NCBI GenBank assembly: GCA_035400945.1
Contig: DAONAJ010000014.1
Span: forward strand, 4,740 to 68,739
Length of the DNA stretch: 64,000 bases
Source: Spirochaetota bacterium
Lineage (GTDB): Bacteria > Spirochaetota > UBA4802 > UBA5550
Reading direction: 5' to 3'
Shown here piece after piece: positions 5,315-41,908 of this stretch. Positions within the stretch are counted from its first letter, which is position 1; each line of letters starts with the position of its first letter. The position numbers and the translations under genes are program-made. A model generated the notes under the pieces. The model was not told where the DNA came from. It made no database searches and saw only the letters and a list, made by a program, of their open reading frames with translations.

Positions 5315-7297
5315 ATGGCTGAAGTTACTCTTAAAGAGATTTATCCAGTGCCCGAAAGTTTCAAGAAAAAGGCATACATCAAAAGCCGCGCTGACTACGA
5401 AAAAATGTGGAAAGAGTCCCTTGCTGATCCAGACGCCTTCTGGGCAAAGATTGCCGAGGAGTACGTGACCTGGTTCAAGAAATGGGACACGGTCAACACC
5501 AGCAACTATGCCAAGGACATGAAGGATTTCAAAATCGAGTGGTTTAAGGGCGGCAAGCTGAATGTGTCCTACAACTGTCTCGACAGGCACCTGGAGAAGA
5601 GAGGGAACCAGGTAGCCCTCATCTGGGAAGGAAACGATCCCAGCGAAGACAAAAAGTTCACCTACAAGCAGCTCCATGAGGAAGTCTGCAAATTCGCCAA
5701 TGTTCTCAAGAAAAACGGCGTCAAGAAGGGCGACCGGGTTACCTTCTATCTGCCGATGATCCCCGAGCTGGCAATAGGCATTCTCGCCTGTACCCGTATC
5801 GGCGCGATCCACTCTGTCGTTTTCGGCGGCTTCTCCGCTGAAGCGCTCCGCGACCGCGTCAACGATTGCGACAGCCAGGTGCTTGTATCCTGCGACGGCA
5901 CCTTCCGCGGCGCCAAGGCTGTTCCCCAGAAAGACAACGCCGACAAGGCCCTCAAAGAGTGCCCGGGCGTTCGGTGCCATATCGTTGTGAAACGGGTCGG
6001 CGACCAGATCAAGTGTACCTGGAACGACAAGACCGACAAGTGGTGGCATGAAGAAATGGCAACAGTCGACGCCAAATGCGAACCGGAACACATGGATGCG
6101 ACGGATCCCCTGTTCATCCTCTACACCTCCGGATCGACCGGAAAGCCGAAAGGCGCCATGCACGGAACCGGCGGCTACCTGACCTACGTGGCCTTTACCC
6201 ACAAGATTATCTTCGACTATCATGAAGGCGACATCTACTGGTGTACCGCCGACATCGGCTGGGTAACCGGACACTCCTATATCTGCTACGGTCCCCTCGC
6301 CAACGGCGCGACCACGATCATGTTCGAAGGCGTTCCCAACTATCCGGATCCGGGCCGGTTCTGGCAAGTTGTTGAGAAGCACAAAGTCAATATTTTCTAC
6401 ACCGCTCCGACCGCTATTCGCGCGATCGCCAAAGAAGGCGACAGCTGGGTCGACAAGCACAACATCAAGTCCATCCAGCTCCTCGGTTCAGTCGGCGAGC
6501 CTCTGAACCCCGAAGCGTGGAACTGGTATTATCAGAAGATCGGCCGCGGCGAGTGCCCGATCGTTGACACCTGGTGGCAAACCGAGACCGGTGGCATCCT
6601 CATCACCCCGCTTCCCGGCGCTATCGACATCAAACCCGCCATGGCGACGGTTCCCTTCTTCGGCATTGAGCCCTGCATCGTTGACGATGAAGGCAAACCC
6701 CTTGAAGGCGTATGCCAGGGCAACCTCTGCATCAACCGCTCATGGCCTGGTCAGATGATGGGCGTGTACGGAGATCCCAAGCGGATGTTCGACACCTACT
6801 TCTCGCAGTTCCCGGGCAGGTACTTCACCGGTGACGGCTGCAAACGCGACAAGGACGGCTACTATCAGATCACCGGCCGCGTTGACGACGTCATCAACGT
6901 ATCCGGTCACCGGATGGGGACCGCTGAGGTCGAATCGGCCCTCGTATCCAACAAGAACGTGGCCGAGTCCGCCGTTGTCGGTTATCCGCACCCGATCAAG
7001 GGCCAGTCGATCTACGCGTTCGTAACGCTGAAATCCGGCGTTGAGAAATCAGACGAACTCAAGAAAGAGCTCGTCGCCACCGTCCGCAAGGAGATCGGCC
7101 CCATCGCGACACCGGAAATCATCCAGTGGGCGGACGTTCTTCCCAAGACCCGGTCAGGCAAGATCATGCGCCGGATCCTCAAGAAGATCGCCGCCAGCGA
7201 CTTCGACAAGAGCGGCATGGGCGACACCTCGACCCTCGCCGACCCGTCTGTCGTTGACACGCTGATCGCGGGCGCAAAAGAAGTTCAGGGCAAGTAA
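5315..7297 (+). CDS. acs: Acetyl-CoA synthetase (AMP-forming)
   Basis: 660 aa. Canonical Acs motifs [40 protein letters not shown] and [11 protein letters not shown] are present. Confidence 0.95.
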
Positions 7298-7318
7298 GTC
7301 TTCCGCAAATGAAACTCG

Positions 7319-7349
7319 AAAAGCGGCGATGCAAATCGCCGCTTTTTTT
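7319..7349 (+). terminator. Rho-independent terminator after acs
   Basis: AGCGGCGA-TGCAAA-TCGCCGCT hairpin followed by T8. Confidence 0.75.
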
Positions 7350-7409
7350 TGCCCATGACGTTGACATTCTCCATCAACCCTTACCTGCCGCGCTCCCTAC
7401 AATTAAAAC

Positions 7410-7438
7410 TTGACTTACTATCTTGGTTTATTTACTAT
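7410..7438 (+). promoter_or_regulatory. Putative sigma-70 promoter (TTGACT-17-TACTAT)
   Basis: Hexamers read directly, ~33 nt upstream of the lipoprotein ATG at 7471. Confidence 0.35.
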
Positions 7439-7470
7439 AAAACTGACCATCCTTGATGCGGAGTTTGCAT

Positions 7471-7920
7471 ATGAAAAGAGTATTTATCCCGGTTTTGGTC
7501 CTTCTGTTATCATGCGGCATATCAACCGTCCAAAAGGGAAATTCCGGCGCTACCGGTGCTTCGTCATCGGCATCAAAGAACGAGGCAAAGCCGGATACGG
7601 AGCGCTGCAGGGAATACGAGGTTCCTGAAGGAAGTGATTGCTACCTGACCGGCGTCAGAGCGGTGCCCTGCGGCGACTGCGAAACAGGGGTAAAGCTCTA
7701 TGTCATAGCCTATAACGTGGGCAAAGCCTCCCATCCATGGGGGTTTGAGCTGTCCCGGATCAGGGTCCCCGCCGCCAGGGCCGAGGAATTTGAAACACTG
7801 GTATCACGATATTCCCCGGTAAAATGCTCAGGCGTCATTGTACTGCCCCCCTGCGGTCCGGAAGCCAAGGATATGAATTTAAAAATACCATGGCCCGCAT
7901 GGGTCCGGTTTCCGCAGTAA
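7471..7920 (+). CDS. Hypothetical lipoprotein
   Basis: MKRVFIPVLVLLLSCGIS contains a lipobox (LSC). I prefer this start over the upstream TTG extension in the ORF track. Confidence 0.5.
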   Translation: MKRVFIPVLVLLLSCGISTVQKGNSGATGASSSASKNEAKPDTERCREYEVPEGSDCYLTGVRAVPCGDCETGVKLYVIAYNVGKASHPWGFELSRIRVPAARAEEFETLVSRYSPVKCSGVIVLPPCGPEAKDMNLKIPWPAWVRFPQ

Positions 7921-7972
7921 TCAAAACAGCTTTTCTGAAAAATAAAAAAAATTAATAAAATCCTCCATCTGC

Positions 7973-8001
7973 TTGACTTTGTCCCATCCGATACATATTT
8001 T
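7973..8001 (+). promoter_or_regulatory. Putative sigma-70 promoter (TTGACT-17-TATTTT) for the riboswitch-kimA-like transcript
   Basis: Hexamers read directly. The predicted TSS lies ~4-8 nt before the first riboswitch helix. Confidence 0.35.
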
Positions 8002-8011
8002 ATTCTCTATT

Positions 8012-8130
8012 GTTACGCCGAGATCCGGGCAATCCCCGGATGCGGGGGACCCGTTTTGTTGGGGCGTATTCCAATACCGGATAGGGCACTTCCAAGCCCG
8101 AGCCCGTCAGCTAACCTCGTAGGCGATTGG
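8012..8130 (+). promoter_or_regulatory. c-di-AMP riboswitch (ydaO-yuaA / kimA motif)
   Basis: The segments GCGGGGGACCCG, UUGGGGCGUAUUCC and GAGCCCGUCAGCUAACCUCGUAGGCG match the conserved ydaO-motif blocks GGGGGACCC, GGGGUGAAUCC and ACCCGUCAGCUAACCUCGUAAGCG. CGCC (8016-8019) can pair with GGCG (8122-8125) as the closing helix. A KimA-like transporter lies directly downstream. Confidence 0.8.
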
Positions 8131-8204
8131 GAGGCCCTGTGAAGCTGCCTGCATGACAGTTTTATTTTCCCGCCTCCATAGTTTCTTCCGGTGCCGGAGG
8201 CCCT

Positions 8205-10208
8205 ATGAACAACGATGAGAATAAAGAACCGCTTTTCAAACGATTAAAACTGCTGCTTATCGGCAAGTCGCGCAGCGTCTCTGACCCTTCCATTTTCCAC
8301 AAGCTCTCCCTGATCGCTTTTTTCGCATGGGTAGGATTAGGCGCCGACGGGCTTTCGTCTTCCTGCTACGGCCCTGAAGAAGCCTTTCTGGCCCTGGGGA
8401 AACACCATTACCTGGGCATTTTCGTCGCCCTCGGTACGGTAATCACCATATTCGTCATCAGCGCCAGCTATCATCAGATTATTAAGCTTTTCCCGACCGG
8501 CGGAGGCGGCTACCTGGTGGCCAGCAAGCTCCTGTCGCCGTCAACAGGCATGGTTTCGGGGAGCGCCCTTCTCATCGACTATCTCCTGACCATAACCCTT
8601 TCTGTCGCCAGCGGCGCCGATGCCCTTTTCAGCTTCCTGCCCGCTACCTGGATACACTATAAGCTGCCCGTTGCCGTCTTTGGCGTCATCCTGCTGATCT
8701 GGCTCAACCTCCGCGGGGTCAAGGAGTCGGTTGTTCCCCTGGTCCCCATTTTCCTAATATTTCTAATAACCCATGGCTTTGCCATCATCTATGCCTTTAT
8801 CACCCACGCCGGCAATATGCCGGATATTGTCAGCTCCACCGTGACAGAGGTCCGAAGCACCAGCGCGGAAATGGGAACCCTCGGAATGATATTCCTCATC
8901 CTCAGGGCCTACAGCATGGGGGCCGGAACCTTCACCGGTATCGAGGCAGTATCCAATGGTATACCGATCCTGCGCGAACCGAAGGTGAAGACCGCCACCC
9001 ACACCATGAATTACATGGCGGCTTCCCTTGCCATCACGGTTGCCGGCCTCATGATCGCGTACCTGCTCTTTCATGTCGAACACGTTCCGGGAAAAACCCT
9101 CAACGCGATCCTCTTCGCGAATCTTTCCAGAGACTGGGCCCCGGGTCTCGCCCAGGCCTTCATCCTGGTCACGCTGCTTTCCGAGGCGGTCCTTCTTTTT
9201 GTGGCCGCACAGACCGGCTTCCTTGACGGGCCCCGGGTGCTCTCGAACATGGCCCTTGACCGCTGGGCTCCCACCCGGTTTGCTTCCCTTAACGACCGGC
9301 TGGTGACACAGAACGGCATACTCATCATGGGCATCGCGTCGATAGCGCTCATGGTTTATTCAGGGGGCTCGGTCAAGCTCCTGGTCATCTTCTACAGCAT
9401 CAACGTATTCATAACATTCTCACTCTCCCAGCTGGGCATGGTTCGGCACTGGTGGATTGCGAGAAAAAGCGAGGACCACTGGAAGAAAAAACTTTTCATC
9501 AACGGCGTCGGCCTCATTCTCACCTCGTTCATACTCGTCTCGGTGGTTGTCCTCAAGTTCAACGAAGGGGGATGGCTGACCGTTTTCATTACCGGATCCC
9601 TGGTGGCACTGTCCGTCGTAATTAAACGCCATTACAACCGGACCGGAAAGCTCCTCGGCAGGCTGAAGGGCCTTGTTGAAATCGCCGAGATGGACATGGC
9701 ACGGTATGAAAAGAAGCGGCGCCCGTGGAAGAGAACGCAGGAAGTGGATCCAAAGGCCAGGACCGCGGTCCTTTTCGTGAACGGCTTCAGCGGCACGGGT
9801 CTGCATACCCTCTTCACAATTTTAAGGATCTTCCCGAAAATCTACAAAAACTTTATCTTCATCCAGATCGGCCTTATCGATTCAGGCCTCTTCAAGGGCG
9901 CCGAAGAGATATCCCAGCACAAGGCCCACATCGAGCAGGAGGCGAACCGGTACGTCAGCTATATGCGCGCCCACGGGTTCAACGCGGAATGCCGCACCGC
10001 CATCGGGGTTGACGTGGTCGACGAGTCGGTGCGCATCGCGACGGAAATCGTTAAAGCCTATCCACGGTCCATTTTCTTCGCCGGGCAGTTGGTGTTCCCG
10101 GAGGACACTTTCTTCACCCGGTGGCTCCACAACTACTCCGCCTTTGCGATACAGCGGCAGTTCTACACCCGGGGCATTTCCATCCTCATCCTGCCGATCC
10201 GGCTGTGA
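8205..10208 (+). CDS. KimA/YdaO-like APC-superfamily transporter (probable K+ uptake) with a C-terminal cytoplasmic domain
   Basis: 667 aa with ~12 hydrophobic helices. The N-terminal LLIGKSRS...GADGLSSSCYGPEEAF resembles the KimA/APC signature. A ~200-aa soluble C-terminal domain follows. The gene is preceded by a c-di-AMP riboswitch, as B. subtilis kimA (ydaO) is. Confidence 0.65.
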   Translation: MNNDENKEPLFKRLKLLLIGKSRSVSDPSIFHKLSLIAFFAWVGLGADGLSSSCYGPEEAFLALGKHHYLGIFVALGTVITIFVISASYHQIIKLFPTGGGGYLVASKLLSPSTGMVSGSALLIDYLLTITLSVASGADALFSFLPATWIHYKLPVAVFGVILLIWLNLRGVKESVVPLVPIFLIFLITHGFAIIYAFITHAGNMPDIVSSTVTEVRSTSAEMGTLGMIFLILRAYSMGAGTFTGIEAVSNGIPILREPKVKTATHTMNYMAASLAITVAGLMIAYLLFHVEHVPGKTLNAILFANLSRDWAPGLAQAFILVTLLSEAVLLFVAAQTGFLDGPRVLSNMALDRWAPTRFASLNDRLVTQNGILIMGIASIALMVYSGGSVKLLVIFYSINVFITFSLSQLGMVRHWWIARKSEDHWKKKLFINGVGLILTSFILVSVVVLKFNEGGWLTVFITGSLVALSVVIKRHYNRTGKLLGRLKGLVEIAEMDMARYEKKRRPWKRTQEVDPKARTAVLFVNGFSGTGLHTLFTILRIFPKIYKNFIFIQIGLIDSGLFKGAEEISQHKAHIEQEANRYVSYMRAHGFNAECRTAIGVDVVDESVRIATEIVKAYPRSIFFAGQLVFPEDTFFTRWLHNYSAFAIQRQFYTRGISILILPIRL

Positions 10209-10234: not shown

Positions 10235-10912
10235 ATGTCCATGGAACAGCTCATCAGGGTCTTTGACAGAAAGCGCGACCCCTACATGGAGTGGCACGAC
10301 GGCCCGAGCCTCCAGGAGGTCGACTCGGCCATGGCTGGCCTTGCTCCGGAAGAGCGCGCCGAAGCGTCGCGCCTCGTAGCGGAGCGGATCAGGAACGGCT
10401 ACGATCCCTACCTCGGCAGGGCCGCGGAGATACTTGGAACGGATGAATGCCGGAATGCCCTGAACGAGGTCCTGGCATCAGGGCCGGGTTCGTATGGCGC
10501 GGGAAATATCGCCAGGAACATCCTGACCATGGGCAGAAGCGAAGATGCCGTCGCCGCCCTGCGGTCCATCGTGGGAAACCGGTCCCTCGGATGGCCGGAA
10601 CGTATCGACGCCCTGGTCAACCTGAAGATCGCCATCGATTCCTCCGGCGGATCAAGGCCGATTACCGATTTCATCACCCCTGAATTCGAAACAGTAATAT
10701 TCGAAGCCCTTTCAGATGATGACTACCTGGTTCGCTACCACGCAGCCGAAGCACTGCTCAAGGCTGCCGGGGATAAAACCGAACTATCAGACCACAAAGA
10801 ACTCTTCAGTTATATTTGCGGCAAACATGCCGTTGACGGAACACCTGACGATGCCGACCGTGAAGGATTCCGCCGGGCCGCGGAAATCTTGCGAAACATA
10901 CTGGAGAAATGA
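10235..10912 (+). CDS. HEAT-repeat-like hypothetical protein
   Basis: I prefer ATG 10235, which follows GGAGGAAGG, over the 10121 extension that overlaps kimA. The sequence is helical and repeat-like, e.g. DDDYLVRYHAAEALLKAAG. Confidence 0.5.
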   Translation: MSMEQLIRVFDRKRDPYMEWHDGPSLQEVDSAMAGLAPEERAEASRLVAERIRNGYDPYLGRAAEILGTDECRNALNEVLASGPGSYGAGNIARNILTMGRSEDAVAALRSIVGNRSLGWPERIDALVNLKIAIDSSGGSRPITDFITPEFETVIFEALSDDDYLVRYHAAEALLKAAGDKTELSDHKELFSYICGKHAVDGTPDDADREGFRRAAEILRNILEK

Positions 10913-11259
10913 TCATGGTATTCCAGGGCCCTGTCATAACTGAAACCCACCAGCAGGACCAGGAATTGGCCCGCATAGAGCTGGAGTTTCTTGGCGATGC
11001 TGTTAATGGGCGCTTTGCCACCCTCTTTTGCCTCTGGGGCGGGGTTCCGTACCTGACCGCGGACGGCTATCAGCCCTTTACGGGCCGGGTGATTGAGAGG
11101 CTTCAGGCCGATCATTTCGTTGCGGAATTATACGGACGTTTCCGGTGTCATCATTTCGATTGCACGACTTTGATCATAGAAGCAAGGGGGAGAACGGCGC
11201 GCATCTACGAGAATAAACAGGACCATGCGGTGACTCTGTTCCGGGAAGACCACCGATAA
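10909..11259 (+). CDS. Hypothetical protein (116 aa)
   Basis: ATGA start/stop overlap with the upstream gene suggests translational coupling. I recognise no motif. Confidence 0.4.
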   Translation: MIMVFQGPVITETHQQDQELARIELEFLGDAVNGRFATLFCLWGGVPYLTADGYQPFTGRVIERLQADHFVAELYGRFRCHHFDCTTLIIEARGRTARIYENKQDHAVTLFREDHR

Positions 11260-11296: not shown

Positions 11297-12277
11297 CTAC
11301 TTCTTCTTTGTGAAGTATTCATGGAAGAGCTCCCGGTTGATGTTCAGCAGGCGGTCACGGATCTGGGTCATGTTTTCGAAATTGTAGCTCTGCAGGCTGT
11401 AGTAATCCAGGAGCCAGAGGTATTTATTGATAAGGCGGGGCATGATGTTCGAGGCCTCCACCTGTCCCCTGTTCATCTTCTGATAGGTCAGCTCCAGGTT
11501 GTAAATGTCCTTCTGGATTCCTTCGACCTGGTGCGCGCTCAGGTTGCGCTTGACGTAAAAAATATCATGGATGTAGCCGTAGATGGGGATCCACTCGGCA
11601 ATATCCTTGAAATCGGCCCGCTCTTTTTTCACGATCTCCACCAGTTCCTGGATCGGCTTCGCCTTCAGCAGACTCAGGTCGATCTCGGCCGGGTCTATGA
11701 AAAAGGCCTCGCGAAAGGAAAGGAGGCTCTTCGACGTGTCGCCGGAATGGAAGTAGGCCTCGCCGAGGATCGCCATGAGGCGCGCGCTGCTCTTGTAGGA
11801 GCCCCGGGCGTACTCGAGGGTGTCGATCGCCAGCCTGTATTCCTCAAGCCGCAGGAAGCAGTCCCCCAGGTTGAGGAGAAACTGGAAATTGTTCGATGTG
11901 TCCTGCTGCTCCCGGAAGGCGAACTTGTAGTTGTCCGCCGCCTTGATAAAGATGTACCGCATGGCGTACTTGAAGGCTGACGAGGAGACCATGTTCTTTC
12001 CCTCCGCGTACTCGTTGAAGACCTCCCACTGCTTCATGAGGTACTCGGCGGTGTCCTTGCCCTCTTCGAGGGTCTTCATCTCCTTTTCACGGTTGTTCCA
12101 GAATTTAGCCACCCGGTACGACTCGATGAGGCCGGGATAGTCGGCATCGATGTCCATCAGCTCGTCTATTTTGGCGACCGCGGCCGCGAACTCGCCCTTT
12201 TCGAGGAGCTGGTACACCTCGTTGATGCCGTTCAGGATCGGATCATCGGAAAATGTCAGTTGCCCGTTCTTGTCCAT
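11297..12277 (-). CDS. TPR-like helical-repeat protein, third gene of the phosphoesterase/ATPase operon
   Basis: 326 aa. TPR-like segments include NLGDCFLRLEEYRLAIDTLEYA and AILGEAYFHSGDTSKSLLSFREAFFIDP. The start is 5 nt after the ATPase stop. Confidence 0.6.
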   Translation of the reverse strand: MDKNGQLTFSDDPILNGINEVYQLLEKGEFAAAVAKIDELMDIDADYPGLIESYRVAKFWNNREKEMKTLEEGKDTAEYLMKQWEVFNEYAEGKNMVSSSAFKYAMRYIFIKAADNYKFAFREQQDTSNNFQFLLNLGDCFLRLEEYRLAIDTLEYARGSYKSSARLMAILGEAYFHSGDTSKSLLSFREAFFIDPAEIDLSLLKAKPIQELVEIVKKERADFKDIAEWIPIYGYIHDIFYVKRNLSAHQVEGIQKDIYNLELTYQKMNRGQVEASNIMPRLINKYLWLLDYYSLQSYNFENMTQIRDRLLNINRELFHEYFTKKK

Positions 12278-12282
12278 CGCCT

Positions 12283-14430
12283 TTAAAGCTCTACGAAATT
12301 CCCCCAGTTCCGCTTGTCGCTCTGGTGCGTGAATATTATCACCTGCCGCTTGTTGGAAACATACGACACCAGGTCCCGGAACCGGTTACAGCGTTCATCA
12401 TCCATAAACTGGAACGGTTCGTCAATCAATAATGGGATCGTGGTGCTCCCGTTGATGATGAAATCGGAAAGGGTGAATTTCAGCGAGAGGAGCAGCGCGT
12501 GGACGACGGGGGGCGTCATCTCGTCGGACATCCTGTTTTCCGTTATCATCTGCAGAACCGCGGCGTCGTCGATCTTGGTGATGTACTGGTTCCCCGTGAG
12601 GTGGTTGAACTTCTCCAGGGTGCCGTCCAGGAGCTTCCGCAGCTGCTTTTCCTCGCTGCGCTCCACGGCGCGCGTCATCATGCGGGTGATGAAATACATC
12701 GAGTTCCTGTTGACCTTCCATTTTTTCAGTATCCGGTCGGCGCTGTTCCTCTCCTCGATGAGGGCGTTCATGGCCCCGCTGTTGCCTGACGCCTGGAGGA
12801 ACTCGTTGTCGATCTGCTGCAGGATGCGCTCCTTTGTCTCGATCTTTTCTTTTATGAGTCCCGCCTCGGTACCGATGTTCCGGATCAGCTCCTCGATCTT
12901 GCTCGTCTCGTTTTCTATGTCATCCACGATGTTCAGGGTGTCGATGCTGGTGTGGATTTCGTCCTTAATGATTTCCTCTTCCTTCTTCAATTCATCCAGC
13001 TTTTTCTGAATCCTCACCATGTATTCTTCCTCTTTCAGGGAGCTCTTGATCATGGCAAGGTCCTTCTTCCGCTCCGTGTAATTGACGTAGTCCTCGAAAT
13101 ACTGCAGGAGGAGCTCGTAGATTTCGGTAAGCTTGTAGTCCTCCAGCACCACCTTGCTCTTCTCCATCAGGGCCATGATTCGCTCTTTGAAGCGTTTCTT
13201 TTCCTCTTCCAGCTTCTGAAGATCCCTGTCGCGCCTGATCAGCATCAGCCCGACGCCGATGGCGGCATAGGCCATGCAGGCGAGGCCGATTATCCCGAGC
13301 AACAGGTACAGGTCCTTGAAAAAGTGGAACCCGTTTTTTATCAGCACGGTCGCAAGCGCGGCGAGAGCGCCGGCGGAAACCGCGATGGCCGCCCTCTTCA
13401 GCCTCCTGGCCTTCAGCTCCCTCCTGAAATAAAAATTATCGATCTTTTCGTTGAGGTTCCTGATGTCGTTGAACACCTCCTGGAGGCGGTCAAGGTTGGT
13501 GCTGTCGGTGATATCGATCTCGCTGAACTGCGGGAACATGGCATCCAGCTCGGTCTTCATGTCGGCCATTGACTTTATCTTCTGCTGCTCGCTCTGTATC
13601 TCGTCCTTGATGTCCTCGAACTCTTCTTTCAGCTGCTCGACCTTGTGAAGGTTCTCGATTATCTTGTTCAGGATTTCCTTCTGGCTGTTGAGGGAGTTTA
13701 GGGAGCTGTTCAATTCGTCCACTTCGCACTGTATCGTGTTTTTTTCCCTTCTGAGCTTATCGTGCCGTGAATCCCTGATGTCCATTATCTGGATCTTCTT
13801 TTCAAGGTCACGCTTTTTGTCTTCAAACCGCGCGACTTCAGGAGGCAGCCCGCCGTCATCCGCCATGCCCGTGTCAAAAATCCTTTGCATGTTCAGGTAC
13901 TGGTTGTAAAAGCCGGTGTTTTCATCGAGTATGATCCGCTTGAGCACCGGAAGATCCAGGAAGGAATCCCTGGCAATATCGGAGGACGCCGGGACAAAGG
14001 AAGAGTTGATAAAGGAGACGATATCGAACCGTCCCAGGAAGTCCCGGAGCATCCTGCCTTCGAAATCCTTGTAAAAATGATTCTGGACCCTGTTGTCCTG
14101 GCCTTCCGACTTTGACTCGGAATAGATGACCTTTTCCGCGTTGTTCTGGATATACTGTATCCGGTAATTCTTATCACTGGTGTTGCAGATGCGGTAATAT
14201 CCGCTGTCGGACAGGGAAAAGAACAGATCCAGATAGAGAGAGTTCCATACCTCGTCGCCCAGGAGCTTCCGCTCGGAAAACTTACCCCACAGGACATCCA
14301 CCATGCTCCGCGCCAGGAGGCTTTTCCCCGATCCGTTCTTGCCGTAAACAATGGTAAGCCGGTCGCTGAAATCAATGACACGGTTATCGAAGAGCCCGTG
14401 CCTGTAAACCATGCACTTTATATACTGCAC
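12283..14430 (-). CDS. Rad50/SbcC-like ABC-type ATPase with a central coiled coil interrupted by two transmembrane helices
   Basis: The N-terminal Walker A is GKNGSGKS. The C-terminal Walker B/D-loop is IPLLIDEPFQFMDD. Long heptad-like Glu/Lys/Leu-rich arms flank a hydrophobic hairpin at about residues 347-398 (AAIAVSAGALAALATVLI...LLLGIIGLACMAYAAIGVGLMLI). Confidence 0.8.
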   Translation of the reverse strand: MQYIKCMVYRHGLFDNRVIDFSDRLTIVYGKNGSGKSLLARSMVDVLWGKFSERKLLGDEVWNSLYLDLFFSLSDSGYYRICNTSDKNYRIQYIQNNAEKVIYSESKSEGQDNRVQNHFYKDFEGRMLRDFLGRFDIVSFINSSFVPASSDIARDSFLDLPVLKRIILDENTGFYNQYLNMQRIFDTGMADDGGLPPEVARFEDKKRDLEKKIQIMDIRDSRHDKLRREKNTIQCEVDELNSSLNSLNSQKEILNKIIENLHKVEQLKEEFEDIKDEIQSEQQKIKSMADMKTELDAMFPQFSEIDITDSTNLDRLQEVFNDIRNLNEKIDNFYFRRELKARRLKRAAIAVSAGALAALATVLIKNGFHFFKDLYLLLGIIGLACMAYAAIGVGLMLIRRDRDLQKLEEEKKRFKERIMALMEKSKVVLEDYKLTEIYELLLQYFEDYVNYTERKKDLAMIKSSLKEEEYMVRIQKKLDELKKEEEIIKDEIHTSIDTLNIVDDIENETSKIEELIRNIGTEAGLIKEKIETKERILQQIDNEFLQASGNSGAMNALIEERNSADRILKKWKVNRNSMYFITRMMTRAVERSEEKQLRKLLDGTLEKFNHLTGNQYITKIDDAAVLQMITENRMSDEMTPPVVHALLLSLKFTLSDFIINGSTTIPLLIDEPFQFMDDERCNRFRDLVSYVSNKRQVIIFTHQSDKRNWGNFVEL

Positions 14431-15545
14431 AGCCAGTCCTCCAGGTTTGTAAACCCGTCACGGGTGATTTTATTCAGGGATAGGGCGAAATCGGTCTTGT
14501 CAATATCGTGGGGCAGGCCGCCCTGGTCAATCTGTTCTTTTATGATTTTATAGAATTCCCCTCGCAGCGAATTCTCGTACTGGAATTCCTCTATGAGGGA
14601 ATCGATCGTCGGCACGCTCCGGTCGATGAAGTCCAGCCTGAAAAACTCGCTCCTGTAATTCTGGATTTCATACTGGCGCAGGACAAAGTCCCGCTCCCCC
14701 GTCAGGACTACCTGCTGGATGGCCTTCTTCGACCTGTTGTTCTCCAGCAGTTCCTTGATGGGGCCCATGGTCACCAGGCTGGAACAATCGACCTGGTCAC
14801 GGTACAGCTTCATGGAATTGACGGTGAGCCGCTTGATCTGGTACAGTCTGTTCTCCTTGATGACGATGGATATGATGTAACGGTCTCCCGTTTCATCAAA
14901 GGACGTGGCCTCGGGGCTCCCGGGGCAGACCCCGATGATGCGGTCCATGATCTTGAACATCTTGAAGCTGTGGCAATAGCCGAAGGCGTAAAAATCCAGG
15001 CCCAGGGTCTTGATGTCATTCTTCTGGAGACGGTACACCAGGTAATCGTTCTTCTCATTGTCAAAATCGAAGTCAGCGTGGAACAGCCCGATGTGAAAAC
15101 CCTCTTCGGATATTTTTTTTACTTTCGATAGATCGTATCCCAGGCTGCCCGACAGGCCGTAGACATAGACCTTCTGACCGTTCTTCATGTACAGGTAGGG
15201 AGTCGCGGTCATGGTGCTCGAAAAAAGGCAGGATGCGTTGAAATCAAGAACCGGGGGGGCAATGACGTTCCTGCTGGTAAGTTCCCCTTTTCCCGGCGTA
15301 TACACAATTTCAGTGCCGGCGTTCCGCAGTGCCCTGAATTCCGTCCTGATAATGTCGATTATGTCGCTGCCGACGGAAGCGTTGTCAATGAGGTCGCCCC
15401 CGATGAGGAAGAGATCATGTCCCCGGGCAATAGCGGCAATACGCTTGAAGGTATTTACCCTGGCGTAATCGGGGATATGGGTATCATTGGGCCTGATACC
15501 CAGATGAATATCCGACATGAACAAAATCTTGATTTCGCTATCCAT
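14418..15545 (-). CDS. Calcineurin-like metallophosphoesterase (Mre11/SbcD-like) with degenerate motifs III and V/VI
   Basis: Motif I is FMSDIHLG, motif II is LIGGDLID and motif IV is GLFHADFD. The GNH[D/E] motif is replaced by PGKGE and the GHxH motif by GYCH. The stop overlaps the ATPase start by 13 nt. Confidence 0.8.
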   Translation of the reverse strand: MDSEIKILFMSDIHLGIRPNDTHIPDYARVNTFKRIAAIARGHDLFLIGGDLIDNASVGSDIIDIIRTEFRALRNAGTEIVYTPGKGELTSRNVIAPPVLDFNASCLFSSTMTATPYLYMKNGQKVYVYGLSGSLGYDLSKVKKISEEGFHIGLFHADFDFDNEKNDYLVYRLQKNDIKTLGLDFYAFGYCHSFKMFKIMDRIIGVCPGSPEATSFDETGDRYIISIVIKENRLYQIKRLTVNSMKLYRDQVDCSSLVTMGPIKELLENNRSKKAIQQVVLTGERDFVLRQYEIQNYRSEFFRLDFIDRSVPTIDSLIEEFQYENSLRGEFYKIIKEQIDQGGLPHDIDKTDFALSLNKITRDGFTNLEDWLCSI

Positions 15546-15710
15546 AAAAGCGTCCCATCAAATCGCGGAAAAATAAGCATCAGATGTGCTATCTATATTG
15601 TCGTTTAAAACATTGTAATTCTAAAGTTTTTATGTACCTATAACCTATCCTTCCCTCACCAAATTAAAAAGAATCTCTGCCAGATAAAAACGTACAAGCC
15701 AATTAATAGA

Positions 15711-15877
15711 AGACCCTGTAGCCATCCTGGGGAAAAGGCGACAGGGATATCGCCGATTCCGCCGAGAAAAACCAGGTGCGCTGATGAGGATGACCGAGTG
15801 CAGAGCCGACACGGGATCTGCCGAAAAGGTTCTGCTTTACACGAGGCGGACGGGCAGGATGGCTATAGGGAGTCTTT
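15711..15877. ncRNA. Unclassified structured RNA candidate (~165 nt) closed by a 16-bp helix; strand unresolved
   Basis: CCCUGUAGCCAUCCUG (15714-15729) pairs with CAGGAUGGCUAUAGGG (15855-15870): 15 Watson-Crick pairs plus 1 G-U. An inner helix is UCCGCC (15758-15763) / GGCGGA (15845-15850). Internal hairpins are GGCGA-N8-UCGCC and GCAGA...UCUGC. The GC-rich element sits inside a 500-bp AT-rich intergenic region. Confidence 0.4.
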
Positions 15878-15888
15878 TCAAATGCAAA

Positions 15889-15916
15889 TGATTATTTCCC
15901 TTTTTTTAATTGACAA
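15889..15916 (-). promoter_or_regulatory. Putative sigma-70 promoter on the minus strand (TTGTCA-16-TAATCA) pointing into the structured element
   Basis: Read on the reverse complement. The predicted TSS is ~15882, a few nt before the closing helix. Confidence 0.3.
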
Positions 15917-16049
15917 ATACCAGTTCAACGTCAAAAAGACTCATCTGCACCCCCATCAGGTTCAATGTCTCCCATGACCCTGATATGACATAACTCGTCA
16001 TTCACCCCTGCCGGCGGATGACGGCAAAATAGATTATGAGAGATACAAC

Positions 16050-18028: not shown

Positions 18029-18685
18029 TCAGTATGCTATGCAGAGAAGATGGTACGGAGAATTACACGTCGCGGTAAGAGTTTCTTGGTCATTGATCCA
18101 ATAATAGCTGTTCCCATTATCATAGGAACCCAGTATCCCGGAAGATAAATTTGATTCGGATGTCCACGAATTACATGTAAAGGTCGAGGAATAAGAAGAA
18201 CCATCATGCTGGCTCCCCAACCACCAGTTTGCATCAATTCCGATCGCTGCTTGAAGGGTCAACATAATCCCGCTAGAGTCCCACAGATCGCTCCAGTGAT
18301 CTTTTAACAATTGCGCCTGTCTTGTAGCAGCATCAAATCCATAGACCGGTAATTCCGCATACCTGGCCGGAACAAGGTCCTTAATATCACCATTTCTAAC
18401 CCCTGGAAAAGAAAGAAAGGCCTTTTTTACCGACGCGTTGTCCAGCAGGGTATAACCATAAGCGGCATCTACGCACAGGTCATTCGCACCGGTGCTGCCG
18501 CTCAGGTTTCCGTTATGCAGACCGCCGTCGTAAATATAGATCTGTTTCGGCGCGACTGAATTCAACAACGCAAGCCCCAGCAGCATTGGATCGTTTTCAT
18601 TTGAGTCATCGCACCCCACAATGGCGGGAGCGAACAACAGCCCCGCAACCAGAACAAAAAGCATAATCCGAAAGAAAAACTTCAT
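18029..18685 (-). CDS. DUF1554-like lipoprotein
   Basis: Lipobox signal peptide MKFFFRIMLFVLVAGLLFAPAIVGC. Contains GNLSGSTGANDLC and the C-terminal CNSWTS...YWINDQETLTATCNSPYHLLCIAY Cys pattern seen in DUF1554 proteins. The C-terminal region resembles that of the 62338-63678 product. Confidence 0.6.
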   Translation of the reverse strand: MKFFFRIMLFVLVAGLLFAPAIVGCDDSNENDPMLLGLALLNSVAPKQIYIYDGGLHNGNLSGSTGANDLCVDAAYGYTLLDNASVKKAFLSFPGVRNGDIKDLVPARYAELPVYGFDAATRQAQLLKDHWSDLWDSSGIMLTLQAAIGIDANWWLGSQHDGSSYSSTFTCNSWTSESNLSSGILGSYDNGNSYYWINDQETLTATCNSPYHLLCIAY

Positions 18686-40207: not shown

Positions 40208-40274
40208 CATAATCAGCACGGGGGAGCGGGGCCAGAAATTCTTGACAAAAACCCGCTCCTGTTAGAGAAGGACA

Positions 40275-40351
40275 GAAGAATGACCGGCGTTTTAAGATGG
40301 AATTGACCATCAGGGAATTCTCGCAGTATCTGCATGTCGCACGCCTGGGCA
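40275..40351 (+). promoter_or_regulatory. ZTP riboswitch (pfl motif)
   Basis: P1 is AGAAU (40276-40280) / AUUCU (40316-40320). The conserved GACCGGCG matches consensus GACUGGCG. P2 is GAUGG-AAUUGA-CCAUC, then GGGA, then the 3' element ACGCCUGGGCA (40341-40351), whose ACGCC can form the pseudoknot with GGCGU. The layout matches published Fusobacterium and Thermosinus ZTP aptamers. glyA lies downstream. Confidence 0.75.
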
Positions 40352-40378
40352 TGTATTACTCTGCTGCAGGAGTGCACC

Positions 40379-41908
40379 ATGGAACAATCTATTATCTTAT
40401 CGTACCTTGAGCAAAACGGTGCGGAAAGCATCAACAGCGCCTTTCTCGCATTTCTTTCCAGCCTCGAAACCATAGCCCGGGTCGCGCCGGAAGTTTCCCG
40501 GAGCATCGTGCAGGAGCTGGCTGACCAGCGGTCCAGCCTTAAGCTGATCGCGAGCGAAAACTATTCATCGCTGGCGTCCCAGCTGGCCATGGGCAACCTT
40601 CTGACCGACAAGTACGCTGAAGGATACGCCTACCACCGGTTTTACGCCGGCTGCGACAACGTGGACGCCGTCGAGGACATGGCCGTCGAAGAGGCGAAGA
40701 AGCTCTTCGGCTGCGATCACGCCTATGTGCAGCCGCACAGCGGCGCCGACGCCAACCTGGTCGCCTACTGGGCGATACTCTCGACCCGCATCGAGATGCC
40801 CCGCCTGAATTCCCTGCAGGCGAAAAACACCAATGAATTGAGCGACGCCGACTGGGCGTCCCTCCGTCACGACATGGGGAACCAGAGGCTCCTCGGCCTT
40901 GACTATTATTCCGGCGGCCACCTGACCCACGGCTACCGCATGAACGTCTCCTCGCGCATGTTCGACGCCCATTCCTACACGGTAAGCCGGGAGACCGGCC
41001 TCATCGACTACGACATGATAGAATCGAAGGCCCGGGAGCTTAAGCCGCTTATCCTCCTGGCCGGATACAGCGCCTATCCCCGCGCCATTAACTTCAAGAA
41101 GATGCGCGAGATTGCCGACCGCGTCGGCGCCGTGCTCATGGTCGACATGGCGCATTTCGCGGGACTCGTCGCCGGCGGCGTCTTCACCGGCGAGATGAAC
41201 CCCGTCGCCTACGCCGACGTGGTTACCACCACGACGCACAAGACCCTGCGCGGCCCCCGGGGCGGCATGATCCTGTGCACCAACGAGTTCGCCGACGCCG
41301 TGAACAAGGGCTGTCCCCTGGTGATCGGCGGCCCCCTTCCCCACGTCATGGCCTCCAAGGCGGTGGCCTTCCGGGAAGCCAACAGGCCCGCGTTCAAGGC
41401 CTACGCCGCGGACATCGTGAAGAATTCCCAGGCCCTTGCCCGCTTCTGCATTGAAGCAGGCATGGATGTTGCCACGGGCGGAACCGACAACCACCTCCTC
41501 CTGGTGGACGTCAGGAACTTCGGCCTCACGGGACGCCAGGCGGAAAGCGCCCTCCGCGATTGCGGCATCACTCTTAACCGGAACTCGCTTCCCTTCGACG
41601 TGAACGGGCCCTGGTACACCAGCGGCATCCGCGTCGGCACCCCGGCGGTGACGACCCTCGGCATGGGCATTCCGGAGATGAAGGAAATAGCGCAGATCAT
41701 GCACGGCGTCCTCGCCAACACGAAGGCGCAGACCGATCCGAAAACCGGCAAGAAAAGCCTTGCAAAATATGACATCACAAACAACGCGAAGGATGACGCC
41801 CTGGCGAAAGTGAAGCACCTCCTGTCTCGCTATCCGGTGTATCCAGAGCTCGACCTTGACTTTTTGCTCGATTCCTTTGTCAACAACGGCATGACGGTGG
41901 CGGTGTAA
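40379..41908 (+). CDS. glyA: Serine hydroxymethyltransferase (long form, ~509 aa)
   Basis: LIASENY.S, YAEGY...R.Y.GC, TTTHKTLRGPRGG and related motifs are present. ATG 40379 follows AGGAG. The ORF-track start at 40334 lies inside the riboswitch. Confidence 0.9.
   Translation: MEQSIILSYLEQNGAESINSAFLAFLSSLETIARVAPEVSRSIVQELADQRSSLKLIASENYSSLASQLAMGNLLTDKYAEGYAYHRFYAGCDNVDAVEDMAVEEAKKLFGCDHAYVQPHSGADANLVAYWAILSTRIEMPRLNSLQAKNTNELSDADWASLRHDMGNQRLLGLDYYSGGHLTHGYRMNVSSRMFDAHSYTVSRETGLIDYDMIESKARELKPLILLAGYSAYPRAINFKKMREIADRVGAVLMVDMAHFAGLVAGGVFTGEMNPVAYADVVTTTTHKTLRGPRGGMILCTNEFADAVNKGCPLVIGGPLPHVMASKAVAFREANRPAFKAYAADIVKNSQALARFCIEAGMDVATGGTDNHLLLVDVRNFGLTGRQAESALRDCGITLNRNSLPFDVNGPWYTSGIRVGTPAVTTLGMGIPEMKEIAQIMHGVLANTKAQTDPKTGKKSLAKYDITNNAKDDALAKVKHLLSRYPVYPELDLDFLLDSFVNNGMTVAV

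Follow-up and report, generated by a model that had tools for sequence, protein, structure and literature searches.

A 64,000-nucleotide stretch of the genome of a Spirochaetota bacterium (assembly GCA_035400945.1, contig DAONAJ010000014.1, positions 4,740 to 68,739 of the forward strand), here called the window, carries on its minus strand a three-gene operon coding for a phosphoesterase of the Mre11/SbcD family, a membrane-anchored Rad50-type ATPase, and a soluble tetratricopeptide repeat (TPR)-like protein. The identity and architecture of this trio are assigned with high confidence, and it is a new variant within the known, barely studied YhaO/YhaN (SbcF/SbcE) proteins, and neither a new class nor a defence system. 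The functional reading is held with low to moderate confidence: the trio is rather probably a three-subunit, membrane-anchored derivative of YhaO/YhaN, which acts as an ATP-switched clamp or scaffold. All positions refer to the window unless another locus is named.

Operon organisation and selection

The operon comprises three open reading frames (ORFs), i.e. gene 1 (14418-15545, minus strand, 375 aa) for the YhaO-like Mre11/SbcD-family phosphoesterase with a degenerate active site, gene 2 (12283-14430, minus strand, 715 aa, GTG start) for the Rad50-type ABC ATPase of the YhaN/SbcE kind with a split head, helical arms and a central transmembrane (TM) hairpin, and gene 3 (11297-12277, minus strand, 326 aa) for the cytoplasmic, all-helical TPR-like protein, which shows the highest conservation among the subunits. 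Gene 2 starts within gene 1, with an overlap of 13 nt (14418-14430), and a gap of 5 nt (12278-12282) separates it from gene 3. A GGAGGA Shine-Dalgarno sequence of the ATPase gene (14437-14442, minus strand) was read within the conserved L-E-D-W codons of gene 1, with a spacing of 6 nt to the GTG start of gene 2 (14428-14430), and a consensus scan found no terminator-like site on the coding strand within the operon.

At least 33 related loci were found in GTDB species representatives, and all those listed were metagenome-assembled genomes (MAGs) labelled Spirochaetota, Leptospirales or Leptospiraceae. The order phosphoesterase, ATPase, TPR protein was kept in every related locus with all three genes. 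The overlap of genes 1 and 2 was 4-22 nt in all related loci but one, and the gap between genes 2 and 3 was 2-10 nt in all except one truncated locus. Against three relatives, the ratio of nonsynonymous to synonymous substitution rates (dN/dS) was 0.05-0.11 for each of the three genes, with gene 1 alone at 0.07-0.10. Together with the conservation of the trio in the sufficiently complete related loci, these values indicate that the genes are constrained and are not chance ORFs, and the same ratios argue against decaying pseudogenes. The single, translationally coupled operon proposed in the first-pass annotation is thus supported by the overlap, the short gap, the Shine-Dalgarno sequence inside gene 1 and the junctions kept in relatives. 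Judged by gene order and junctions in the complete loci and by dN/dS, the trio is predicted to be one functional unit.

At 14431-14445, the conserved C-terminal L-E-D-W-L-C of the phosphoesterase shares its bases with the Shine-Dalgarno sequence and start codon of the ATPase gene, and a constraint from translational coupling may lie behind part of the conservation of this peptide.

Rad50-type ATPase with a transmembrane hairpin

Gene 2 matched Pfam AAA_23 with 43.7 bits, above the cut-off, and AAA_27 with 27 bits (cut-off 22). Its NCBIfam scores were far below the SbcC and Rad50 cut-offs, and no NCBIfam family came near its cut-off. The AlphaFold2 (AF2) model, built with 29 homologues (pLDDT 78.7, pTM 0.50), places the N-terminal head half at residues 1-200, followed by helices 222-298 and 310-365, a short loop, helices 374-399, 402-424, 434-464, 468-498, 509-547 and 551-612, and finally the C-terminal head half. 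The top Foldseek match of this model was Rad50 of C. thermophilum (7zr1, E 6.5e-13), after which came MukB, Smc5/6, YydD, JetC, LmuB and SbcC, and a profile of the ATPase family searched against the PDB gave Rad50 chains at the top and weak matches to SMC and AriA proteins at the bottom.

The Walker A motif GKNGSGKS (residues 30-37; 14320-14343, minus strand) has nearly invariant G30, N32, G35 and K36. Walker B and the D-loop were located by alignment in PLLIDEP (residues 666-672; 12415-12435, minus strand), of which LLIDEP forms residues 667-672, and the H-loop F-T-H702 lies downstream. P666, D670, P672, T701 and H702 are invariant in the ATPase family. Gene 2 is therefore a Rad50-type ATPase in which long helices connect the two halves of the head and carry a TM hairpin at their apex; the split head had been noticed earlier from GKNGSGKS and LLIDEP, and both motifs proved conserved, with Rad50 leading the structure matches.

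The hairpin (residues ~347-399; 13234-13392, minus strand), recognised from hydropathy and the AF2 helices, consists of two hydrophobic segments in mid-helix, 347-365 and 380-398, with Kyte-Doolittle values of 1.97 and 2.35 in 19-residue windows. Each of the 30 family ATPases had at least one central hydrophobic segment at this position, most of them having two separate segments, and the TM hairpin suggested by the first-pass annotation was thus borne out, although in sequence it is the least conserved stretch of the ATPase. The flanks of the hairpin are basic (RRELKARRLKR before, RRDRD after). By the positive-inside rule, these flanks and the ~8-residue loop suggest that both arms are cytoplasmic, and the whole ATPase except the hairpin is predicted to be cytoplasmic, the head being suspended beneath the inner membrane. 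No CxxC zinc hook was found in the apex region of gene 2, where the hydrophobic hairpin stands instead.

A point missed by the first-pass annotation is that the ATPase itself is degenerate. The profile of the ATPase, run against 1.84 billion representative proteins, matched 115 clusters at E ≤1e-30, 560 at 1e-10, and 6824 at 1e-3, and the 115 clusters were taken as the trio family. Alignment to two-gene outgroups (described below), which have T-x-F-x-x-Q, identified the Q-loop position as S143-S-F-V-P-A148 (13987-14004, minus strand), and throughout the trio family the glutamine is swapped for Ala or Ser (F-x-P-[SA]). The signature motif LSxGxxDQ, again by alignment with outgroups, is replaced by M638-T-P-P-V-V-H-A645 (12496-12519, minus strand), a position which reads (N/T)-P-x-x-x-H in the trio family with H644 invariant.

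Conservation of the ATPase peaks outside the head. A family-specific, membrane-proximal helix of residues 433-458 (KLTEIYELLLQYFEDYVNYTERKKDL; 13057-13134, minus strand) was delimited by column identity and outgroup alignment, and its residues 436-450 form the most conserved block of the protein (column identity 0.80, against 0.74 for Walker A). Most two-gene outgroups show a gap opposite this helix, and the remaining ones have no conservation there. The helix is a candidate docking site for the TPR protein.

Phosphoesterase with a degenerate active site

Gene 1 scored 24.4 bits against Pfam Metallophos (cut-off 21.5), and 14-25 bits against NCBIfam families with cut-offs of 78-500 bits. A family profile built from 41 members was run against solved structures, and all matches at E ≤1e-4 were Mre11/SbcD chains (best E ~1e-9), the three weakest rows (E ~0.005) being the nuclease MPE and Lmo2642. 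On sequence grounds, gene 1 is assigned to the Mre11/SbcD-family phosphoesterases, with the first metal site and the C-terminal helices apparently kept.

Motif I, D12-x-H14 (15504-15512, minus strand), is retained, and D12 and H14, as well as the motif II metal ligands G50 and D51, are invariant in the 41 sequences. The motif IV histidine H156 is nearly invariant in the same alignment. In motif V, G189-Y-C-H192 (14970-14981, minus strand) by alignment of family members, the second histidine H192 is invariant in the 41 homologues, with a departure in one divergent locus (L032), and the first histidine is Y, F or S in the subclade of the window, GHxH being kept by more distant family members. 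The PGSPE motif that follows is invariant or nearly so.

Motif III is lost. At its position, P84-G-K-G-E88 (15282-15296, minus strand) replaces PGNH(D/E), and in the residue-level alignment the family consensus 'PGegE' falls onto PGNHD of T. maritima Mre11. The middle two residues are variable, and N-H occurred in 0 of 32 family members, all 32 having P-G-x-x-E, so that the whole family is without the metal-binding Asn and the catalytic His. In Mre11, exonuclease activity requires the motif III His, and the Asn serves as a ligand of the second metal. The earlier statement that the nuclease-like partner lacks key catalytic motifs accordingly holds familywide for motif III, and within the subclade of the window for the first histidine of motif V. 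The C-terminal SLRGEF motif is conserved in the gene 1 family and is also present in one two-gene outgroup; it may be part of the ATPase-binding helices.

TPR-like third partner

Two recognisable TPR motifs were found in gene 3 by Pfam and structure matches (residues 128-200; 11678-11896, minus strand), and the protein outside these residues is family-specific. The best Pfam match was TPR_16 with 32.3 bits (cut-off 32.7). AF2 modelled the protein as an all-helical solenoid with pLDDT 89.9, and a structure search of the PDB returned weak generic TPR matches only, with a best E of 2.8e-3 and full-length TM-scores of ~0.3. Hydropathy analysis revealed no hydrophobic or TM segment in gene 3. Across the loci, the TPR protein was 46-97% identical to its counterpart in the window, compared with 18-92% (ATPase) and 24-95% (phosphoesterase). 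A soluble, TPR-like solenoid, the gene 3 protein is confined to the trio family and more conserved than either partner; the third partner of the first-pass annotation is strictly syntenic and has the highest conservation in the trio.

Two plus-strand ORFs without Pfam match, 10235-10912 and 10909-11259, converge on the TPR gene, and the former is kept with ~80% identity in two related loci (L006 and L008), not more widely. In the relative with 36% ATPase identity, the TPR gene is adjoined by another convergent gene (L001 11164-13329 and L002 5837-8002), whose 721-aa product has an Apyc1-like metallo-beta-lactamase domain and a cyclic nucleotide monophosphate (cNMP)-binding domain.

Two-gene relatives and kinship to YhaO/YhaN

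The next-nearest phosphoesterases (E 4e-12 to 6e-4) belong to two-gene pairs with an ATPase of 665-820 aa, and the TPR gene was absent in all five loci examined. These outgroup phosphoesterases keep GNH(D/E) and GHxH, and their ATPases keep the Q-loop glutamine and LSxGxxDQ where alignable, and carry a central hydrophobic hairpin. Distant ATPases (P0408-P0435) likewise have intact motifs and a central hairpin. All eight outgroup ATPases tested reached the AAA_27 cut-off, one of them exactly. The traits specific to the trio are thereby the loss of motif III, the replacement of the Q-loop glutamine and the signature motif, the TPR gene, and helix 433-458.

In one outgroup locus (L045), a two-gene pair with intact Mre11 motifs and a TM-hairpin ATPase (5322-9501 of that locus) lies a few hundred bases after ftsA-ftsZ, with one methyltransferase gene in between, and a 144-aa Cys/His-rich ORF with no Pfam match overlaps the ATPase stop codon.

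The central domain of Bacillus subtilis YhaN (SbcE) is unique, rich in hydrophobic residues, and insoluble, and the protein has no CxxC and interacts with YhaO (PMC2811018). SbcE and SbcF act in the repair of double-strand breaks and in competence and form polar foci (PMC2811018). A literature search on membrane-anchored Rad50-like proteins, SbcEF, COG4717 and AAA_27 found nothing past this 2009 SbcE paper. The hairpin in the intact two-gene relatives, together with the hydrophobic central domain of SbcE, indicates that the hairpin is ancestral to the YhaN class and is not an invention of the trio; what the first-pass annotation described is thus present, but it does not set the trio apart. 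The kinship to YhaO/YhaN, which had been proposed in the first-pass annotation, was corroborated by the AAA_27 score above cut-off and by the label 'YhaN' given to several ATPase relatives by JGI.

Like B. subtilis SbcE/SbcF (COG4717/AAA_27 with a Metallophos partner), the trio has adjacent genes for a phosphoesterase and a Rad50-like ATPase, a central domain that is hydrophobic and stands where the hook would be, and no CxxC zinc hook. Set beside the published description of YhaN, the trio ATPase is shorter (715 aa vs a predicted 106 kDa), its Q-loop glutamine and LSxGxxDQ are replaced, and the phosphoesterase lacks motif III. The trio has in addition an obligate TPR third gene, whereas in B. 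subtilis yhaN has yhaM on its other side, and the family-specific helix 433-458, and among the matches listed it is confined to uncultured Spirochaetota. With SbcCD and Mre11-Rad50, the trio shares the fold, Walker A, Walker B, D-loop, H-loop and antiparallel helical arms of the ATPase, and in gene 1 motifs I, II, IV, part of V, and the PGS motif. It differs from them in that a TM hairpin substitutes for the zinc hook, the arms are much shorter, motif III, the Q-loop and the signature are lost, and the NCBIfam scores fall far short of the SbcC, SbcD, Rad50 and Mre11 cut-offs.

Distribution and genomic setting

Among 5.8 billion proteins, the ATPase had 46 word-sharing relatives, and all the named ones came from Spirochaetota MAGs. 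In clusters with more distant TPR proteins, every named member was a MAG entry, labelled either 'hypothetical protein' or as a generic TPR protein. In the window and in many relatives, the trio has a divergent PASTA-domain gene and rpe at its flank, and the block trio-PASTA-rpe...trmD...HD_5 is common to the window and to a locus with 36% ATPase identity (L001). The housekeeping block (S16-trmD-L19, rpe, PASTA) holds the trio from 97% down to ~50% TPR identity, and across 18 loci the TPR identity tracks the Rpe and PASTA identities (Spearman 0.91 and 0.90, respectively). No homologues of the TPR protein were found in IMG/VR contigs or PLSDB plasmids. The trio appears to be a vertically inherited core-genome locus in uncultured Spirochaetota labelled Leptospirales, because synteny extends to the 36%-identity relative, divergence tracks that of Rpe, and the TPR gene has no viral or plasmid copy. 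Three findings had been named beforehand as counting against the first-pass annotation, i.e. mapping of the trio to a well-characterised housekeeping family, a TPR gene out of synteny, and predictions at odds with the TM and coiled-coil architecture, and none of them was encountered.

Farther along the minus strand, ORF 18029-18685 is a likely lipoprotein with ~33% identity to a DUF1554-annotated gene, the window copy itself having no Pfam match; the DUF1554-annotated gene stands immediately upstream of the trio in three related loci (L003, L004 and L011).

Proposed function and alternatives

The most likely role of the trio is that of a membrane-tethered, nucleotide-switched clamp or scaffold, and not of a nuclease or defence system. 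The hairpin would tether a cytoplasmic Rad50-type head to the membrane, paired with the Mre11-type subunit. The intact Walker A, Walker B and H-loop suggest that nucleotide binding is kept, and nucleotide would still be bound but poorly hydrolysed, with head engagement or hydrolysis altered. The phosphoesterase would be a poor nuclease or none, since, with metal site 2 and the catalytic His gone, little or no nuclease chemistry is expected of it. The TPR subunit would dock on the membrane-proximal helix 433-458, a link suggested by the confinement of both to the trio family, and the clamp or scaffold might hold a cytoplasmic ligand, most plausibly DNA, at the membrane, with end processing unlikely. 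ABC sites with degenerate signature motifs are known from CFTR and TAP. In CFTR and TAP1/2, Walker A and B are kept and the signature is degenerate as in the trio, which suggests stable ATP binding with little turnover; these are, however, heterodimeric transporters with one degenerate site, when the head of the trio is presumably a homodimer with both sites degenerate.

Several points weigh against the clamp or scaffold. Metal site 1 (D12, H14, D51, H192) is intact, and loss of motifs is no proof of loss of activity. The invariant H644 might stand in for part of the signature motif. The pTM of 0.50 makes the arm geometry of the gene 2 model uncertain. Docking of the TPR protein on residues 433-458 is suggested by a co-occurrence which stems from a single evolutionary event, and DNA is assumed as the ligand from family history alone. 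Finally, the family members are all 'hypothetical protein' or generically named entries from MAGs.

A still-active nuclease for double-strand break repair or DNA uptake, similar to B. subtilis SbcE/SbcF, with the TPR protein as a recruitment factor and other residues compensating for the lost ones, would fit the role of these closest characterised relatives in repair and competence and their polar foci (PMC2811018), the retention of five of the seven canonical Mre11 active-site residues in most family members, the invariant or nearly invariant Walker A, Walker B and H-loop, and the strong purifying selection. We consider it rather doubtful, as no member keeps the motif III Asn and His and the Q-loop and signature are lost too, while the two-gene relatives keep all motifs; that both enzymes lost motifs together points to an altered mechanism. 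The opposite extreme, by which both enzymes are pseudo-enzymes in a membrane-bound, nucleotide-switched scaffold, with the TPR subunit on the membrane-proximal helix as its business end and DNA possibly not involved, is conceivable but somewhat unlikely. Related to it is a role outside DNA metabolism, e.g. as a coiled-coil scaffold at the membrane that serves envelope, division or motility proteins, the TPR protein being the protein-binding adaptor. Catalytic motifs degenerate in both enzymes, conservation peaking in the TPR protein and the membrane-proximal helix and not in the head, the conserved adjacency to a PASTA-domain envelope protein, and the one two-gene outgroup after ftsA-ftsZ would all agree with such a scaffold. 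The PASTA gene and rpe are nevertheless divergent from the trio and do not form one operon with it, so their adjacency may be no more than synteny kept by descent, no gene for envelope or division is co-transcribed, and the head matches Rad50 and not any non-DNA ABC protein. Taken by itself this role is improbable, and it gains in probability when merged with the pseudo-enzyme scaffold.

The first-pass annotation had also raised an anti-phage or anti-plasmid module of the SMC-like kind (Lamassu, Wadjet and Gabija-like), sensing foreign DNA at the membrane, and this we now regard as highly improbable. In PADLOC, a single LmuB model matched the ATPase weakly and in full length (49 bits, E 1.3e-13), the JetC matches were weaker still, LmuB and JetC were also among the Foldseek matches, and an Apyc1-like gene adjoins the TPR gene in L001 and L002. 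Lamassu LmuB and Wadjet JetC do have the same SMC/Rad50-type head and coiled coil, but the likeness is the generic SMC-head similarity common to Rad50. PADLOC gave nothing for gene 1 and one weak, implausible match to the PtuA ATPase for gene 3 (E 0.003), and the LmuA/LmuC and JetA/B/D partners are absent from the operon. Unlike those systems, the trio is membrane-anchored and, by its setting, apparently a vertically inherited core-genome locus: it is fixed in the housekeeping block over the range of 97% to ~50% TPR identity, it diverges in step with its neighbours, and its TPR gene is without copy in the viral contigs and plasmids.

Upstream intergenic region

The intergenic region before gene 1 is 505 nt long and contains two non-coding blocks, both conserved in seven loci, down to ~68% ATPase identity. 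Block 1 (15897-15945) is promoter-like on the minus strand, with TTGTCA-N17-AATCAT found by a consensus scan and invariant columns in the seven loci, and it is a candidate promoter or operator of the operon. Block 2 (15589-15630, minus strand), 45-85 nt before the start of gene 1, has the core AACGACAAT..AGATAG, invariant in the alignment of the seven loci. Inspection of the two blocks by eye for LexA-box, sigma-28 and sigma-54 motifs gave nothing convincing.

Between the blocks, inverted-repeat search and folding identified a GC-rich palindromic insert (15714-15870), the structured RNA element of the first-pass annotation. Its 16-nt arms (15714-15729 and 15855-15870) are 94% complementary, and the fold has a z-score of -3.6. 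The palindrome is real; as a conserved RNA the element did not hold up. Rfam gave no match for it, either in the window at gathering thresholds or in the upstream region at E up to 1, and the relatives vary at this place: L006 has a shorter palindrome, L008 and L022 have different GC-rich palindromes instead, and L009 and L010 lack it. A riboswitch-like leader was dropped because the upstream hairpin is not conserved in relatives. The site looks like a hotspot for GC-rich palindromic inserts, and in L022 it is occupied by a perfect 20-nt hairpin.

Riboswitches elsewhere in the window

A cyclic di-AMP (c-di-AMP) riboswitch (87 bits; 8006-8140, plus strand) lies directly upstream of a 667-aa APC-type permease ORF (8205-10208, plus strand; Pfam AA_permease_2), which is presumably a c-di-AMP-controlled transporter. 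A ZMP/ZTP riboswitch (40270-40357, plus strand) scored 48.9 bits, above the gathering score, and is placed at the start of ORF 40334-41908.

Implications

The listed carriers of the trio are all uncultured and its function is inferred. The YhaN/SbcE branch is widespread, with 560 clusters at E ≤1e-10, yet the sole functional study found is the 2009 paper on B. subtilis SbcE. A membrane hairpin in place of the zinc hook would be a general feature of this branch, i.e. of Mre11/Rad50-like machines that work tethered to the membrane. In one lineage, catalytic motifs have been stripped from both enzymes and a constrained TPR subunit has been added, with all three genes under tight selection. If the pseudo-enzyme scaffold is true, a bacterial Mre11/Rad50 machine has been put to a use other than DNA cutting. 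The trio is in any case a natural separation-of-function variant, through which the membrane-tethered Rad50 architecture can be considered apart from the nuclease chemistry.

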